A stretch of 7,900 bases of DNA from Escherichia coli (GTDB lineage: Bacteria > Pseudomonadota > Gammaproteobacteria > Enterobacterales > Enterobacteriaceae): the NCBI RefSeq assembly GCF_003334255.1, contig NZ_QOWU01000093.1; one strand, 5' to 3'. A model generated the notes under the pieces. The model saw only the letters and a program-made list of their open reading frames with translations, did no database searches and was not told the origin of the DNA. Both the position numbers and the translations under genes were made by a program. Positions 1,057 to 7,900 of the stretch are shown here, piece by piece (position 1 is the first letter of the stretch; every line of letters starts with the position of its first letter).

Positions 1057-1839
1057 TCATTCGTCTTCTGAATCAGGTGTAATGATCTTTACAGAAGCAT
1101 TCCGGCAGTGCGTAACATAATCTGCCGGTAACGGACGCTCGCTAATCAGAACATCAAATGCAGAGAGCGGTGCGAGGCTGGCAGAGGCTACTTCATCGAA
1201 CAAGGCGTGGCGGGCGAGCAAAATTTTCCTTAGTCCACGGGCCATCGCTTTACGCTTAGTGGCAAGATCTTCGGGATTAAACCAGCTGACGCCAAAGTGA
1301 TCATGTACACCGCTGGCGGAAATAAATATTTTTCGCGGATTGAGAGAGTCTAATGGCGAAGAGTTACTGGCATCGTAAAAAGCATCACTTCTGGCACGAT
1401 ACGTACCACCACAAAGTATTGCTGTCACATTAGGTTTTTCATTCAACGCAACAAAGACACGATGTGAGTAACAGATGCCAGTGAAGGTGATTGCATCCGG
1501 GATCATGCTTATAACGAGCGGTATCTCCTGGCCATTATCAAAGAAGATCAGATCATTTTCATTAACCATTCCGGCGGCCAGAATTGCAATAGGTAAGTCA
1601 TCACGATGATTTCTCGGAACGTCCTGGATTACTGGCATGGATGGTGCGGGTTTATGCACCATTACAATATAGCCACCCAGTAGGGTCAGTGGCAGAGGTT
1701 CATCTTCCTGATGGAGATCGCGACGAATAGTCATTACAGAAACTTCCAGCATTCGTGCCGCGTCTTTCAAATGGATTCTGTCGGTTTTCTTAAGTATTTC
1801 AATCAAACGTCGGATACGCTCTTTTTGCTTCGTTTCCAT
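1057..1839 (-). CDS. deoQ: DeoR-family transcriptional repressor (N-terminal HTH, C-terminal sugar-phosphate-binding domain); likely deoxyribose operon regulator DeoQ
   Basis: N-terminus METKQKERIRRLIEILKKTDRIHLKDAARMLEVSVMTIRRDL closely matches my recollection of E. coli DeoR (METRREERIGQLLQELKRSDKLHLKDAAALLGVSEMTIRRDL). ATG is the complement of 1837-1839, with GGAGAG upstream on the minus strand; the ORF track starts one codon earlier at TTG (1840-1842). Divergent from a kinase-permease operon, as in deoQ/deoKPX. Confidence 0.85.
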   Translation of the reverse strand: METKQKERIRRLIEILKKTDRIHLKDAARMLEVSVMTIRRDLHQEDEPLPLTLLGGYIVMVHKPAPSMPVIQDVPRNHRDDLPIAILAAGMVNENDLIFFDNGQEIPLVISMIPDAITFTGICYSHRVFVALNEKPNVTAILCGGTYRARSDAFYDASNSSPLDSLNPRKIFISASGVHDHFGVSWFNPEDLATKRKAMARGLRKILLARHALFDEVASASLAPLSAFDVLISERPLPADYVTHCRNASVKIITPDSEDE

Positions 1840-2141: not shown

Positions 2142-3077
2142 ATGGACATTGCAGTTATTGGTTCCAATATGGTGGATCTCATTACTTACACTAATCAGAT
2201 GCCTAAAGAAGGAGAAACTCTGGAAGCACCTGCCTTCAAAATCGGATGTGGTGGGAAAGGTGCTAATCAAGCGGTGGCGGCGGCTAAATTGAATTCAAAA
2301 GTCCTGATGCTGACTAAAGTAGGTGATGATATTTTTGCGGATAATACTATTCGTAATCTTGAATCTTGGGGAATTAATACCACTTATGTTGAGAAAGTCC
2401 CCTGTACCAGCAGTGGTGTTGCGCCGATCTTTGTTAATGCTAACTCGAGCAATAGTATTTTAATAATTAAGGGGGCGAATAAATTTCTTTCCCCGGAAGA
2501 TATCGATCGAGCTGCAGAAGATCTGAAAAAATGCAAATTGATCGTTTTACAACTGGAAGTTCAACTGGAAACAGTTTACCACGCGATTGAGTTTGGTAAG
2601 AAAAATGGTATTGAAGTGTTATTAAATCCGGCTCCGGCATTGCGTGAGTTAGATATGTCTTATGCCTGCAAATATGATTTCTTTATCCCGAATGAAACAG
2701 AACTGGAAATATTAACCGGTATGTCGGTTGATACTTATGATCATATTCGTTTGGCCGCACGTTCGTTAGTTGATAAAGGGCTGAACAATATTATTGTTAC
2801 CATGAGCGAAAAAGGCGCATTATGGATGACCCGTGATCAGGAAGTCCATGTTCCTGCATTCAAAGTAAATGCTGTTGATACTAGTGGCGCTGGTGACGCA
2901 TTTATTGGTTGCTTTTCCCATTATTATGTTCAAAGCGGTGATGTTGAAGCCGCTTTGAAAAAAGCCGCTTTGAAAAAAGCCGCTCTCTTTGCCGCTTTCA
3001 GCGTCACAGGGAAAGGTACGCAATCATCTTATCCGAGTATTGAACAATTTAATGAATTTTTAACCTTAAACGAATAA
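2142..3077 (+). CDS. deoK: Ribokinase/PfkB-family sugar kinase, likely deoxyribokinase DeoK (311 aa from this start)
   Basis: Start MDIAVIGSNMVDL with SD AAGAGG at 2129-2134, 7 nt upstream of the ATG at 2142. Ribokinase motifs GCGGKGANQAVAAA and DTSGAGDAFIG are present. The ORF-track start at 2046 has no SD and adds a non-conserved leader, so I prefer 2142. Context: divergent DeoR-like regulator and a downstream FucP-like permease. Confidence 0.85.
   Translation: MDIAVIGSNMVDLITYTNQMPKEGETLEAPAFKIGCGGKGANQAVAAAKLNSKVLMLTKVGDDIFADNTIRNLESWGINTTYVEKVPCTSSGVAPIFVNANSSNSILIIKGANKFLSPEDIDRAAEDLKKCKLIVLQLEVQLETVYHAIEFGKKNGIEVLLNPAPALRELDMSYACKYDFFIPNETELEILTGMSVDTYDHIRLAARSLVDKGLNNIIVTMSEKGALWMTRDQEVHVPAFKVNAVDTSGAGDAFIGCFSHYYVQSGDVEAALKKAALKKAALFAAFSVTGKGTQSSYPSIEQFNEFLTLNE
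2949..2985 (+). repeat. Perfect 15-bp direct tandem duplication (GCCGCTTTGAAAAAA x2, plus a partial third copy GCCGCTC) inside deoK, in frame
   Basis: Read directly: unit 1 is 2949-2963 and unit 2 is 2964-2978, giving AALKK-AALKK-AAL in the protein, C-terminal to the GAGD motif. Confidence 0.95.
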
Positions 3078-3104: not shown

Positions 3105-4421
3105 ATGAACGATAAAAACATCATTCAGATGCCTGATGGGTATCTGAATAAGACCCCCTTGTTCCAGTTTATTTTGTTATCGTGTTTATTCCCGCTATGG
3201 GGATGCGCAGCTGCATTAAATGACATATTAATCACTCAATTCAAAAGTGTATTTTCGCTAAGTAAATTTGCTTCAGCATTGGTGCAGAGCGCATTTTATG
3301 GAGGTTATTTTTTAATTGCAATACCAGCATCCCTTGTGATTAAAAAGACCAGTTATAAGGTGGCAATTTTAATTGGCCTGACGCTGTATATTGGTGGTTG
3401 TACACTTTTTTTCCCTGCCTCGCATATGGCAACCTACACTATGTTCCTTGCGGCTATTTTTGCGATTGCGATTGGCCTGAGCTTCCTTGAAACTGCAGCG
3501 AACACATACAGTTCGATGATTGGTCCAAAAGCCTACGCTACATTGCGGCTCAATATCAGCCAGACCTTTTATCCGATTGGTGCTGCGTCTGGTATTTTAT
3601 TGGGCAAATATCTGGTTTTCTCCGAGGGGGAAAGCCTTGAGAAGCAGATGTCCGGAATGAACGCCGGGCAAATTCACAACTTTAAGGTGCTGATGTTAGA
3701 GAACACCCTTGAACCGTATAAGTATATGATTATGATTCTGGTTGTGGTCATGGTGTTGTTCCTTTTAACCCGCTTCCCAACCTGTAAAGTGGCACAGACA
3801 AGTCACCATAAACGCCCGTCAGCAATGGATACGCTGCGCTATCTGGCTAGAAATCCGCGCTTTCGTCGTGGTATTGTGGCTCAATTCCTTTATGTGGGTA
3901 TGCAGGTCGCAGTATGGTCATTTACCATCCGTCTGGCGCTGGAGTTGGGCGATATCAACGAACGTGATGCTTCAAACTTCATGGTCTACAGCTTTGCCTG
4001 CTTCTTTATTGGCAAGTTTATAGCCAACATCCTTATGACACGTTTTAATCCGGAAAAAGTCCTGATTCTCTATTCCGTTATAGGGGCGCTGTTTCTGGCA
4101 TATGTTGCACTGGCTCCAAGTTTCAGTGCGGTCTATGTCGCCGTCCTGGTAAGTGTTTTGTTTGGCCCTTGCTGGGCGACGATCTATGCAGGAACACTGG
4201 ATACAGTTGATAACCAACATACAGAAATGGCAGGAGCAGTCATTGTTATGGCTATTGTTGGCGCAGCGGTGGTTCCGGCAATTCAGGGATATATTGCAGA
4301 TATGTTCCACTCACTACAGCTTTCATTCCTGGTTTCTATGCTCTGTTTTGTCTATGTCGGTGTCTACTTCTGGCGTGAAAGCAAAGTACGTAATGCACTG
4401 GCTGAAGTCACAGAGTCCTGA
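3105..4421 (+). CDS. deoP: MFS transporter of the L-fucose:H+ symporter (FucP) family; likely deoxyribose permease DeoP (438 aa)
   Basis: Strong resemblance to FucP as I recall it (ALNDILITQF versus NNLNDILLPQF; SAFYGGYFLIAIPASLVIKK versus SAFYFGYFIIPIPAGILMKK), and hydrophobic throughout. SD AAAGG is upstream; the gene starts 27 bp after the deoK stop. Confidence 0.9.
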   Translation: MNDKNIIQMPDGYLNKTPLFQFILLSCLFPLWGCAAALNDILITQFKSVFSLSKFASALVQSAFYGGYFLIAIPASLVIKKTSYKVAILIGLTLYIGGCTLFFPASHMATYTMFLAAIFAIAIGLSFLETAANTYSSMIGPKAYATLRLNISQTFYPIGAASGILLGKYLVFSEGESLEKQMSGMNAGQIHNFKVLMLENTLEPYKYMIMILVVVMVLFLLTRFPTCKVAQTSHHKRPSAMDTLRYLARNPRFRRGIVAQFLYVGMQVAVWSFTIRLALELGDINERDASNFMVYSFACFFIGKFIANILMTRFNPEKVLILYSVIGALFLAYVALAPSFSAVYVAVLVSVLFGPCWATIYAGTLDTVDNQHTEMAGAVIVMAIVGAAVVPAIQGYIADMFHSLQLSFLVSMLCFVYVGVYFWRESKVRNALAEVTES

Positions 4422-4432
4422 GGAGAATCGTT

Positions 4433-4969
4433 ATGAGTACGCGTATTTATTTGTGGCGGGCGCTTTTTGGCGAAAAACCTCGTATCTTGCTGGAAAATAG
4501 TGATTTTACTGTCACGTCTTTTCGCTATGACAGTGGTGTCGAGGGGCTTAAAATTGCAAACAGTCGTGGACATTTAATTATTCTTCCCTGGATGGGGCAG
4601 ATGATTTGGGATGCGCAATTTGATGGACACAGTCTCACCATGTGCAATATGTTTCGCCAGCCTAAACCGGCGACAGAGGTGATAGAAACCTATGGCTGTT
4701 TTGCCTTTCATTCAGGTTTGCTGGCTAATGGCTGCCCATCTGCGGAAGATACTCATCTGCTACACGGTGAAATGGCCTGTGCCGCGATGGATGAAGCATG
4801 GATGGAATTAGAGGGAGATATGTGACGCCTTACCGGGCGTTACGAGTATGTAAAGGGATTCGGGCATCATTATCTGGCTCAGCCAGCAGTGGTCCTTCAC
4901 AAATCCTCTACACTGTTCGATATTAAGATGGCCGTAACCAATCTGGCTTCTGTAGATATGCCACTACAA
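4433..4969 (+). pseudogene. deoX: deoX-like gene (putative aldose-1-epimerase/mutarotase-like), disrupted by an in-frame TGA at 4823-4825 and 3'-truncated by the IS66-family terminus
   Basis: ATG 4433 with SD AGGAG overlaps the deoP stop (translational coupling). The 130-aa ORF ends at TGA, but the same frame stays open for 48 more codons (RLTGRYEYVKGFGHHYLAQPAVVLHKSSTLFDIKMAVTNLASVDMPLQ) up to stops that overlap GTAAGCG at 4970-4975. HLLHGE and VTN...P segments loosely resemble aldose-epimerase-family proteins such as YphB; that family assignment is tentative. Confidence 0.55.
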
Positions 4970-5001
4970 TAGTAAGCGGCTCGCCAGAACCGTCTTAATA
5001 T

Positions 5002-5183
5002 TTACTGAGAGCTCAGATCAACTTTCCAGGGCAACAGATCGCGTACCCGATTTGCCGGCCAGTCCTGGATATGTTCAATGACGTAACGCAGCCATTTTTC
5101 TGGCTCTACATTGTTCAGACGGCATGTGCCGATCAGCGAGTACAACACCGCCGCATGTTCGCCACCGCTGTCGGAACCCGCGA
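5002..5183 (-). CDS. tnpC: IS66-family transposase TnpC, 3' exon (C-terminal 60 aa: (F)AGSDSGGEHAAVLYSLIGTCRLNNVEPEKWLRYVIEHIQDWPANRVRDLLPWKVDLSSQ)
   Basis: Hand translation of the minus strand. It joins in frame to the upstream exon across the proposed intron, using T at 7008 plus TC at 5183-5182 to form the Phe codon. It is not in the ORF track because it has no start codon of its own. Confidence 0.75.
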
Positions 5184-5186
5184 GTC

Positions 5187-5222
5187 GAGTCAGCCGGAGA
5201 GAATTTCACTCCCCGGCTGCTC
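5187..5222 (-). ncRNA. Group II intron domain VI with bulged branch-point adenosine (plus 5190, 7 nt from the 3' splice site)
   Basis: Minus strand GAGCAGCCGGGGAG / loop UGAAAUU / CUCUCCGGCUG-A-CUC forms a 14-bp helix with one bulged A, followed by GAC and then the exon. Confidence 0.6.
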
Positions 5223-5225
5223 ACG

Positions 5226-5259
5226 GAACCGTACGTGACACTCTCGCGTCATACGGCTC
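5226..5259 (-). ncRNA. Group II intron domain V (catalytic hairpin)
   Basis: Minus strand GAGCCGUAUGACGCGAGAGUGUCACGUACGGUUC: 34 nt with the AGC triad at positions 2-4, a 2-nt bulge on the 3' strand, a GAGA (GNRA) tetraloop and G-U wobbles at the canonical places. It starts 4 nt after the IEP stop. Confidence 0.88.
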
Positions 5260-5263
5260 TTGA

Positions 5264-6496
5264 TCACTCATTCGATGCACGTAGTAAATACCAGTGGACA
5301 AATAGCTTCGGATACTCCTTCCTTACCAGCGTCAGCTTTCGCTGAGCCCTCCGGTTCGAAAGTCTGTATTTAGACTGCATCCACTTGAGCAGACGTGACT
5401 GCATTGCACTCCACAGTCGATAGTTGAAATTTCTGGACCAGAACTTTCCGTAGTACTCGATCCAGCCTCTCACTATCGCATTGTAGCGCCTCGCAAAATC
5501 CAGCAAACTCTCAGCTGTTGAGCGATGTATACGCCACTTCTTGATTGTTTCTGTTATTTTGCGCATTGCTGCATTTGACGCACCCGGCATGCATTTTCGG
5601 TACAGTTCGCCTTTGAAATTCTTCAGCGTACGCACTTTGAAGTCATATCCGAGAAAGGTGAAACTCGTTGCGACGTTTCTCCTTTTAAACGTGTCAATGT
5701 AGGCGATATTCGTTTTCCCTGCATTCAGGACCAGCCCGACTTCCGAGAAGCGCTCCGATAACCTGTTCTTCAGCCTTGTTGCATCACTCATTCGTGAACA
5801 ATGTACTACAATATCATCAGCGTACCTCTCAAACGGTACCCCCCGATATTCTCTTTCCATCCACAAATCAAATGCATAGTGAAGGAACAAGTTAGCAAGT
5901 AGCGGACTAATGACCCCGCCCTGCGGAGTGCCTCGTGTTCGGGTTATTAATTCTCCATTTTCACAACTCTGCATTGGTGCTTCCATCCAGCGTCGACAGT
6001 ACAGGATGACCCATTTAGGCATCCCGTGGTGTTCCAGTGCTTTGAGCACCAGATCATGTCTCACATGGTCGAAAAACGCACTGATGTCCACTTCCAGTAT
6101 CCAGCTATAACGCCAGCACCGGATGGCACATTGTTTCAGAGCGTCATGAGCTGATTTGCCTGGTCGGTAACCATAAGAATCAGCATGGAAAATCGGGTCA
6201 AGCTTTTCTTCCATAAAAAGTTTTATCGCTCCCTGAGCAATTCGATCGGATACTGTTGGGATCCCCAGAATGCGCTCCTTGCCATTCGGCTTCGGGATCC
6301 GTTTTTCCAGCACAGGTGGCGGAAACCATGTTCCCGAACATAGCCGGTTCCAGATCTTGTATAGATTGCCATCACGTTGCTGGTCGAACATTTTCAAAGT
6401 CTGTCCGTCGCATCCGGGGGCTCCCTTGTTGCGACGCACATCCAGATATGATGCCCAGACCAGTGCTTTTGGTATTTCGAATGATTTTCGTTGCAT
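5264..6496 (-). CDS. Group II intron-encoded reverse transcriptase/maturase (410 aa; RT domains 0-7 plus X/maturase domain, no recognisable C-terminal DNA-binding/endonuclease extension)
   Basis: RT motifs are present: NKGAPGCDG (RT0), GIPTVSDRIAQ, YGYRPGKSAHDAL, TPQGGVISPLLANL and YADD (plus 5813-5824). The maturase motif RGWIEYYG follows. ATG start at 6494-6496; the reading frame is intact. Confidence 0.92.
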   Translation of the reverse strand: MQRKSFEIPKALVWASYLDVRRNKGAPGCDGQTLKMFDQQRDGNLYKIWNRLCSGTWFPPPVLEKRIPKPNGKERILGIPTVSDRIAQGAIKLFMEEKLDPIFHADSYGYRPGKSAHDALKQCAIRCWRYSWILEVDISAFFDHVRHDLVLKALEHHGMPKWVILYCRRWMEAPMQSCENGELITRTRGTPQGGVISPLLANLFLHYAFDLWMEREYRGVPFERYADDIVVHCSRMSDATRLKNRLSERFSEVGLVLNAGKTNIAYIDTFKRRNVATSFTFLGYDFKVRTLKNFKGELYRKCMPGASNAAMRKITETIKKWRIHRSTAESLLDFARRYNAIVRGWIEYYGKFWSRNFNYRLWSAMQSRLLKWMQSKYRLSNRRAQRKLTLVRKEYPKLFVHWYLLRASNE

Positions 6497-7007
6497 CAGT
6501 TACATCATCCCCTTATGGGTTGTGTCTTTTGCAATGAATGTGATCCCCATCCCTTCGCTCCAGACCCATTACAGATCTTTCATCACTACTACGAATGGGT
6601 CCGCCCCTGTTTCCCGATACGTGCCGGAAACAGGTTCTCACGTTCCCTGAGATGGTCTGGCCCGGGATCCTGCTGCCTTAACACCGGATGCCGCGCAGTC
6701 AGTAAGCAGGTGTCTTCTGCGCTTATCAGAGGACGGCTGTACGGCCCCATTTTGACATCATCTAAGATTTCGATGCTTCATCGGACAGTTTACTTTCGTT
6801 CAGCTTCCCGAACCCCACGTGACAGTAGATCTCTGCCTTTTCCCGAGTCGCTCACCACTACATTCCTTAGAATGAAGCAGCACCGGGTCGTTTGGTCAGT
6901 GTTCCTGCAAACCCTGACCGGAGGGCCCACCTCCACCCACCTCAGAGCATGGATAACTTATGCTGCAATTTTCATATTGCCGCTATCAGTTCTCCTTCGT
7001 GACACAC
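6497..7007 (-). ncRNA. Group II intron domains I-III (and the start of IV), 5' ribozyme portion
   Basis: Position and length fit, being about 0.5 kb between the 5' GUGUG and the IEP start. The internal secondary structure was not resolved by eye. Confidence 0.55.
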
Positions 7008-7823
7008 ACAACCAGTTCTTCCGGCCCACGGCCACACCCCGTAAGGCGTTCTCTGCGATGTTGTTGTCGATTTCCACCCAGCCATTGCTGCAGTACACGT
7101 TCAGGGCCTCCCACTGTTTCAGCAGGTATGCGAACGCTTTCGCCGTATCCGAGTGACGCGACAGGGTTTTCATCTTTTCACGCAGCCAGCTTTCCAGGGA
7201 TTTCAGCAGCGGTTTCGTTTTCAACTGACGTTCGGCAAGGCGCTGCTCCGCCGTCATTCCCCTTATCTCTGCCTCGATGGCGTACAGTTCGCCGATCCGT
7301 TTCAGCGCTTCCTCCGTCAGGGCTGACGGGGTGCGAACGTGCACATCGTGGATTTTACGGCGGGCGTGAGCCCAGCAGGCGGCTTCCGTTATCCGGCCAT
7401 CCCGGTACAGCTCGTTGAACCCGGCGTATGCATCCGCCTGCAGTACACCACTGAACCCCGCAAGATGGGTCTGCGGATGGATGCCTTTTCTGTCCGGGCT
7501 GTAAGCGAACCACACCGCCGGCGCCAGCGTTGACCCGGCGTTACGGTCGTCACGAACGTAGGTCCATAACCGCCCGGTCTTCGTTTTCTTATTGCCTGGC
7601 AACAGCACCGGGACAGGCGTGTCATCAGCATGGAGCTTACCGTCAGTCAGCACATAGTCCTGAAGCGCTTCTTCCAGCGGTGACAGTAGCCGGCAGCATG
7701 CATCCACCCAGCCCGACAGCAGTGAACGACTCAGCTCCACACCTTGCCGGCCGTATATTTCTGACTGGCGATACAGCGGGGTGTGCTCTGCATACTTCGA
7801 GGTCAACACGCGGGCCAGCAGCC
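7008..7823 (-). CDS. tnpC: IS66-family transposase TnpC, 5' exon (central region, N-terminally truncated)
   Basis: Translation ...[34 protein letters not shown]...[20 protein letters not shown] matches the IS66 TnpC pattern. ORF-track entry 6958..7809 is this frame reading 16 codons into the intron before a stop. No IS66-like coding continues beyond 7823. Confidence 0.75.
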
Positions 7824-7900
7824 CATAAGCGCTAACTTAAGGGTTGTGGTATTACGCCTGATATGATTTAACGTGCCGATGAATTACTCTCACGATAACT
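7824..7900. mobile_element. Probable IS186-like (IS4-family) terminal region abutting and truncating the IS66-family tnpC
   Basis: CATAAGCGCTAACTTAAGGGTTG at 7824-7846 matches my recollection of the IS186 terminal inverted repeat. It is preceded by a GC-rich stretch (GCGGGCCAGCAGCC), in keeping with the GC-rich targets I recall for IS186. The tnpC frame hits a stop at 7837-7839. This rests on memory only. Confidence 0.45.

Follow-up and report, generated by a model that had tools for sequence, protein, structure and literature searches.

The window, by which we mean the whole 7,900-nucleotide stretch of Escherichia coli DNA analysed here, carries a deoQKPX locus in which a divergent DeoR-type repressor gene, a kinase gene, an MFS permease gene and an epimerase-like gene are found in the expected order, which is intact in the public loci L002 and L021. 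The kinase gene, deoK, contains a perfect 15-base tandem repeat close to its 3' end. The features are listed below with the evidence for each.

1057..1839, minus strand: deoQ, divergent DeoR-family repressor (NF007961, 230 bits; RefSeq annotation).
2142..3077, plus strand: deoK, PfkB ribokinase of the deoxyribokinase type, 311 aa (TIGR02152; start codon as annotated by RefSeq in the related E. coli records L001 and L002; comparison with Nissle).
2673..2675, plus strand: codon 178 of deoK, TAT (Tyr), the lineage-specific change C178Y, linked to most expanded alleles (alignment; comparison with Nissle).
2886..2897, plus strand: GAGD motif, G249 A250 G251 D252, which includes the catalytic Asp and precedes the insertion by 18 residues (invariant columns; sequence).
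2947..2984, plus strand: perfect tandem repeat of period 15, 2.53 copies, consensus AAGCCGCTTTGAAAA (Tandem Repeats Finder; sequence; chance estimate).
2949..2963, plus strand: repeat unit 1, GCC GCT TTG AAA AAA, encoding A270 A271 L272 K273 K274 (sequence).
2964..2978, plus strand: repeat unit 2, the same as unit 1, encoding A275–K279, the extra AALKK (sequence; alignment).
2979..2984, plus strand: partial third unit, GCCGCT (sequence).
3105..4421, plus strand: deoP, fucP-like MFS permease, intact (TIGR00885, 319.9 bits).
4433..4825, plus strand: deoX/deoM remnant, aldose-1-epimerase family, 130 aa (open reading frame; comparison with sister loci).

The kinase scores 359.7 bits against the NCBIfam ribokinase profile TIGR02152 (cut-off 299.65), matches ribokinases in the PDB at E = 2e-61 and keeps all of the family motifs (GGKGANQ, PNETE and DTSGAGD) in an alignment of 38 sequences. 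The glycine-rich motif of the sugar site, G35-C36-G37-G38-K39-G40-A41-N42-Q43, is present in invariant columns, as are D246, G249, A250, G251 and D252 of the C-terminal DTxGAGD motif, which provides the catalytic Asp and the anion hole. The NXXE motif is present as P183 N184 E185 T186 E187, with P183, N184, E185 and E187 in invariant columns. In addition, the protein is 95% identical to a Salmonella protein named deoxyribokinase by UniRef, and the two fall in one 90% cluster. Profile, annotation and alignment thus identify the gene product as DeoK, the ribokinase of deoxyribokinase type that belongs to the deoQKPX locus, in agreement with the deoxyribokinase assignment made in the first-pass annotation; public databases already list the proteins, named generically as "ribokinase".

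The DeoK of the window equals WP_000350265.1, the common E. coli DeoK (that of Nissle 1917 and strain 48, among others), with two changes: the substitution C178Y (nucleotide 2674) and the insertion of AALKK. At least 90% of the 38 aligned family members have Cys at position 178, as does the common E. coli protein. Nissle 1917 has been shown to grow on 2-deoxy-D-ribose, an ability that was credited to its deoQKPX cluster (PMC7924626), and the one-copy C178 DeoK is for this reason taken to be active in vivo. S222, at a position where glycine is near-invariant in the family, was considered as a possible defect and rejected: it is the normal E. coli state and is present in the deoxyribose-using Nissle 1917.

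The fourth gene of the operon has been shortened in two steps. It encodes 337 aa where it is intact (L002 and L021), 179 aa in sister loci, where IS66 has inserted after window position 4971 and cut the gene short, and 130 aa in the window, where a T-to-G change at 4824 creates a TGA stop (4823–4825) that is shared with L020 and L030. The IS66 transposase gene is itself split into two pieces (C-terminal, ~5002–5148; N-terminal, 6958 onward) by a group II intron at ~5150–6950 on the minus strand. The intron has Rfam hits at 6818–6934 and 5184–5261 and carries an intact 410-aa reverse transcriptase/maturase open reading frame (5264–6496, minus strand; TIGR04416, 394.7 bits). Likeness to L003, L004 and L013 ends at 7824 within the IS66 transposase gene, so that the element seems truncated or rearranged over 7825–7900, and seven mismatches to L020 that cluster at 7658–7729 suggest a different IS66 copy there. 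On the other side of the locus, at ~830–1055 just upstream of deoQ, the window has the same DNA that RefSeq annotates in L001, L002 and L021 as an acetolactate synthase small subunit remnant, frameshifted and with an ACT domain.

Tandem Repeats Finder reports a single perfect array at 2947–2984, with a period of 15, 2.5 copies, 100% matches and 0 indels, which reads GAA GCCGCTTTGAAAAAA GCCGCTTTGAAAAAA GCCGCT C. The perfect in-frame 15-bp tandem duplication claimed in the first-pass annotation is therefore present, but its boundaries had been placed at 2949–2985 and have to be moved. The AA at 2947–2948 also belongs to the array, giving a repeated tract of 38 bases, and the partial third copy comprises six bases (2979–2984) rather than the seven proposed, since base 2985 is C where the repeat unit has T. 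Together with the AA at 2977–2978, the GCCGCT at 2979–2984 makes up the downstream copy of the 8-base sequence AAGCCGCT, which already exists in the one-copy allele. The repeat is in frame with the 311-codon deoK reading frame, and both the sequence and the 38-sequence alignment bear out the proposal that AALKK is inserted with the frame preserved; which of units 1 and 2 is the newcomer is indistinguishable. The 15-base unit has a chance expectation of 0.01 in the window, and two matches were found in 0 of 200 shuffles. Two further short repeats lie nearby. Another GCCGCTTT is found at 2993–3000, 29 bases past the second unit, within ...TTTGCCGCTTTCAGC...; it could mediate out-of-frame deletions, none of which was seen among the loci examined. 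A second tandem repeat, TTGCGA x 2.5, lies inside deoP at 3460–3474 and is trivial (score 30).

The two-copy DNA is identical in 10 independent public assemblies (loci L003–L012). A scan of metagenomes for the repeat junction returned one contig only, L020, which follows the haplotype of the window for 7.7 kb and shares both its two repeat copies and its 4824G stop; this contig served as a replicate and not for the counting of events. Because L020 reproduces the haplotype of the window, the two-copy allele is real and replicated.

The ancestral state was assessed within deoK-bearing genera and within E. coli. The 38 aligned DeoK sequences comprise that of the window, its one-copy E. coli counterpart and 36 homologues of other genera, including Salmonella, Citrobacter, Pluralibacter, Providencia, Moellerella, Aeromonas, Vibrio, Photobacterium, Pasteurellaceae and Bacillaceae. 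The five-residue insertion is confined to the protein of the window and is missing from the other 37, all of which have one copy, so that the two-copy arrangement is not universal among homologues; had it been, it would have counted as ancestral. Within E. coli, a 141-base query whose identity bands tell one-copy from two-copy alleles found this part of deoK in 1,601 records among 5,426 complete genomes, and 1,600 of the 1,601 gave 89.4% identity over 126 bases, the one-copy signature. The remaining record, at 99% identity or above, is strain EC98, in which deoK is interrupted by IS1 and likewise has one copy. The two-copy allele was thus not found in 1,600 deoK-positive complete E. coli genomes, nor in the other genera aligned. 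Because the 37 other sequences and the 1,600 complete E. coli genomes all carry one copy, the comparison indicates that one copy is ancestral and that the duplication is derived. The EC98 element (L001, 3839–4616) lies a few codons upstream of the repeat, is flanked by a 9-base target duplication, TCAAAGCGG, and represents an independent inactivation of deoK in another strain.

Exact-sequence look-ups of public contigs were used to count the alleles on two protein backbones, that of the window (Y178) and the common one (C178). Protein length is 306 aa with one copy, 311 aa with two and 316 aa with three, and all three forms are full-length.

Y178 backbone (that of the window): 0 copies, absent; 1 copy, 55 contigs; 2 copies, 131 contigs; 3 copies, present; 4 copies, absent.
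Common C178 backbone: 0 copies, absent; 1 copy, at least 1,000 contigs; 2 copies, 17 contigs (WP_225380749.1); 3 copies, 1 contig.

The truncated fourth gene, the extra stop and C178Y suggest that selection on the operon is relaxed in this clade, which would account for the abundance of expanded alleles on the Y178 backbone and their scarcity on others. A single metagenome study contributed most of the C178 two-copy contigs, which are mosaic assemblies and may be chimeras of several strains, and for that reason their value as proof of an independent origin was downgraded.

The DNA of 33 public loci was also set against the window, and haplotypes were drawn up from the anchored shared region and a table of SNPs. 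Within the Y178 clade, three sub-haplotypes can be separated on the left-flank junction (near 586/587) and on the bases at 3350, 4525, 4534 and 4824.

Sub-haplotype A (ykg flank, 4525A/4534C): 1 copy, L013, L014 and L017–L019; 2 copies, L003–L012; 3 copies, L032 and L034.
Sub-haplotype B1 (island flank, 3350T): 1 copy, L015 and L016; 3 copies, L033.
Sub-haplotype B2 (island flank, 4824G): 2 copies, the window and L020.

One, two and three copies are found on backgrounds that are 0–3 SNPs apart over more than 4 kb, and in the closest comparison, between L014 and the two-copy loci of sub-haplotype A, the 15 bases are the sole difference over 5.5 kb. Expanded alleles are found in addition on several C178 haplotypes (L022–L031 and L035; proteins P0137, which is WP_225380749.1, and P0139), and three-copy alleles occur on three backgrounds: A, B1 and, in L035, C178. 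As reconstructed from these haplotypes, the pattern takes a minimum of four or five unit changes if there is no recombination, and several events even if there is. The sub-haplotypes rest on one to three linked variants plus the flank junction, and recombination among close relatives could give part of the pattern. Because copy number varies within sub-haplotypes, the haplotype comparison identifies the repeat as a small, recurrently changing in-frame VNTR and as a homoplastic strain marker. The suggestion that the duplication might serve as a strain marker accordingly holds in so far as copy number is polymorphic, but not as a mark of descent in the simple sense, with one, two and three copies found inside the same sub-haplotypes. 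At the left island boundary (585–587), the window, L015, L016 and L020 run into a YagK/zinc-ribbon island (flank 1–586), the left flank of L003–L014 and L017–L019 instead joins ykgR-ykgMO-ecp, and the junction itself is marked by an indel of 6 bases (CAGCGG) or of 2.

The one-copy and two-copy proteins were modeled with AlphaFold to place the insertion on a ribokinase structure. The two-copy model still folds as a ribokinase, at a TM score of 0.85–0.88 against human ribokinase. The helix that runs from the GAGD anion hole spans residues 250–265 in both models. In the one-copy model it is followed by a 2-residue loop and a helix at 268–282, and in the two-copy model by a 4-residue loop and one continuous helix at 270–287, which holds both AALKK units. 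The insertion, 18 residues after the catalytic Asp252, is thus predicted to be helical, as the first-pass annotation had it, though not within the helix of the GAGD motif but at the start of the next one. Human ribokinase N295, which touches the 2'-hydroxyl of the bound nucleotide (PMC12621476), aligns to A276 of DeoK in one-copy numbering, equivalent to A281 in the window, the second residue past the duplicated block. Because A281 is the N295 equivalent, the insertion is placed where the nucleotide-pocket helix starts, at its N-terminal end. Each unit would add AALKK, ~1.4 helical turns, to this end of the helix. The unit on the pocket side restores the native sequence, so that the contact residues would retain their local context, and the extra residues are predicted to extend the helix and the preceding loop away from the core. 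Human ribokinase has two residues more at this site than the one-copy DeoK, which suggests that the site tolerates some length variation. The insertion nevertheless ends two residues short of the nucleotide-contact position, so that it may affect ATP binding. AlphaFold confidence falls from 91.5 in the one-copy model to 84.1 in the two-copy model overall, and from 97 and 96 to 75 and 86 in blocks 261–270 and 271–280. This drop was not accepted as a sign of destabilization, since the inserted columns are empty in every aligned homologue, though it could reflect real strain.

The one-copy E. coli allele, GAAGCCGCTTTGAAAAAAGCCGCTCTC, already contains the octamer AAGCCGCT twice at a spacing of 15 bases (1.5 copies), and the matching period-15 direct repeat in Salmonella and Citrobacter is 6 bases long compared with 8 nt in one-copy E. 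coli. The octamer pair would provide the substrate for slipped-strand mispairing during replication, with the nascent strand misaligned between the two copies of AAGCCGCT so that one unit is gained. This first gain would lengthen the perfect repeat from 23 to 38 bases and make further gains and losses easier. The locus would from then on behave as a small variable-number tandem repeat, with units gained and lost (one, two or three) among very close relatives, and relaxed selection on the deoxyribose operon of this clade would let the length change persist. A one-copy state that is stable in 1,600 of 1,600 complete genomes, together with two-copy lineages that vary, fits the picture of easier slippage after the first gain. 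The recent slipped-strand event proposed in the first-pass annotation is likewise consistent with the identity of the copies and with an exact one-copy parent allele that still circulates. We therefore consider it probable that the repeat is a derived in-frame 15-base duplication of deoK in a narrow E. coli clade, made by slippage, VNTR-like thereafter and tolerated; the slippage mechanism and the direction of the individual changes are what we infer from the octamer pair and the haplotypes. As to its consequence, the expanded repeat is most likely a tolerated change, neutral to mildly deleterious and not adaptive, and we likewise infer that it lacks a strong functional effect.

A different view of the consequence is that the insertion, alone or together with C178Y, destabilizes or inactivates DeoK and is a step in the pseudogenization of a disused deoxyribose operon. 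The IS66 truncation of the downstream epimerase gene and the extra stop in the window point in this direction, as do the tyrosine at a position at least 90% conserved, the fall in model confidence around the insertion and the two residues that separate the insertion from the nucleotide-contact position. The allele counts are of the same tendency, with two-copy contigs outnumbering one-copy contigs by 131 to 55 on Y178, compared with 17 to at least 1,000 on C178. Against this, the deoQ, deoK and deoP frames are open and full-length in all loci examined, the catalytic motifs are all intact, the fold is kept in the model and the loci examined included none with a frameshift in the repeat region. 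We regard an inactivating lesion as possible, if rather doubtful.

The origin of the copy-number states could also be simpler than recurrent slippage, with one stable duplication carried to the different flanks and backbones by descent and homologous recombination and the three-copy alleles as rare one-offs. Recombination is frequent in E. coli, the expanded alleles all lie in near-identical DNA, where a recombination patch would be traceless, and the invariance of the one-copy state over 1,600 complete genomes implies that gains are rare and favors a single gain with later changes over repeated one-to-two gains. Yet three copy-number states are found within sub-haplotype A and two within B1, and three-copy alleles on three backgrounds call for several independent changes or several recombination events. 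A single-origin lineage marker is thus an unlikely description of the repeat, which we continue to treat as a tolerated duplication that became VNTR-like.

It is also conceivable that AALKK copy number is under selection for altered DeoK activity, nucleotide affinity or regulation, as an in-frame 'rheostat'. Within the clade the two-copy form outnumbers the one-copy form (338 versus 147 index blocks), the repeat adjoins the nucleotide-pocket helix and its copy number changes recurrently. However, neither the 1,600 complete genomes nor any other genus aligned has the allele, its frequency in one clone is explicable by hitch-hiking and the operon shows decay rather than refinement, so that adaptive tuning appears quite improbable. 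The fuller version, in which a hypermutable AALKK repeat would tune DeoK nucleotide binding or stability and commensal clones would make kinases of graded activity from a metabolic 'rheostat' contingency locus, is a long shot. A sequencing or assembly artefact has practically no chance of being correct, as the 38-base array is far shorter than any read and different projects have yielded the same two-copy DNA in at least 11 independent assemblies, while a 5.2-Mb contig also contains it.

Compared with the DeoK proteins of deoQKPX loci in Salmonella enterica and in E. coli, where pathogens and commensals such as Nissle 1917 carry them, that of the window is 95% identical to the Salmonella protein and two changes away from that of Nissle, and the gene order is the same; the window differs in C178Y, the five-residue insertion and the truncated fourth gene. 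With phase-variable contingency loci the repeat shares recurrent, reversible, repeat-mediated mutation, whereas it brings no frameshift and no promoter-spacing effect, and it lies in the gene of a cytoplasmic sugar kinase rather than a surface or restriction-modification gene. The unit of 15 is 3 x 5 and the one-, two- and three-copy alleles are all open and full-length, so the repeat does not act as an on/off switch, as had been anticipated from the preserved frame.

The intragenic VNTRs of enterobacteria used in MLVA provide a closer comparison. Like them, the deoK repeat is coding, has a unit divisible by three, is polymorphic among close isolates and shows homoplasy. It differs in its narrow range of one to three copies. 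Most of the species is monomorphic for a single copy, as all 1,600 deoK-positive complete genomes are, and variation is confined to lineages that already have a second copy. A literature search found the deoK repeat in no typing scheme and no paper describing its polymorphism. In practical terms the repeat provides a PCR-sizeable marker of one E. coli clade with a decaying deoxyribose island, though copy number is homoplastic and hence unsuitable alone for phylogeny. Deoxyribose use has been linked to gut colonization by pathogenic E. coli in work cited in PMC7924626 and PMC5382810. The importance of the repeat would rise only if the insertion altered DeoK activity.

The repeat also illustrates how an 8-base microhomology can lead to an unstable coding repeat after a first duplication, and in this it resembles the CTGG x3 hotspot of lacI, which gains or loses one unit by slipped-strand mispairing. 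The two have in common perfect head-to-tail units, a prior direct-repeat substrate and the gain or loss of whole units among close relatives. In contrast to the lacI type of slippage, the deoK unit of 15 bases is a multiple of 3 and yields a protein length variant rather than a null allele. The deoK repeat is thus a fresh example of a well-known kind of mutation and suggests no new mechanism or element type.
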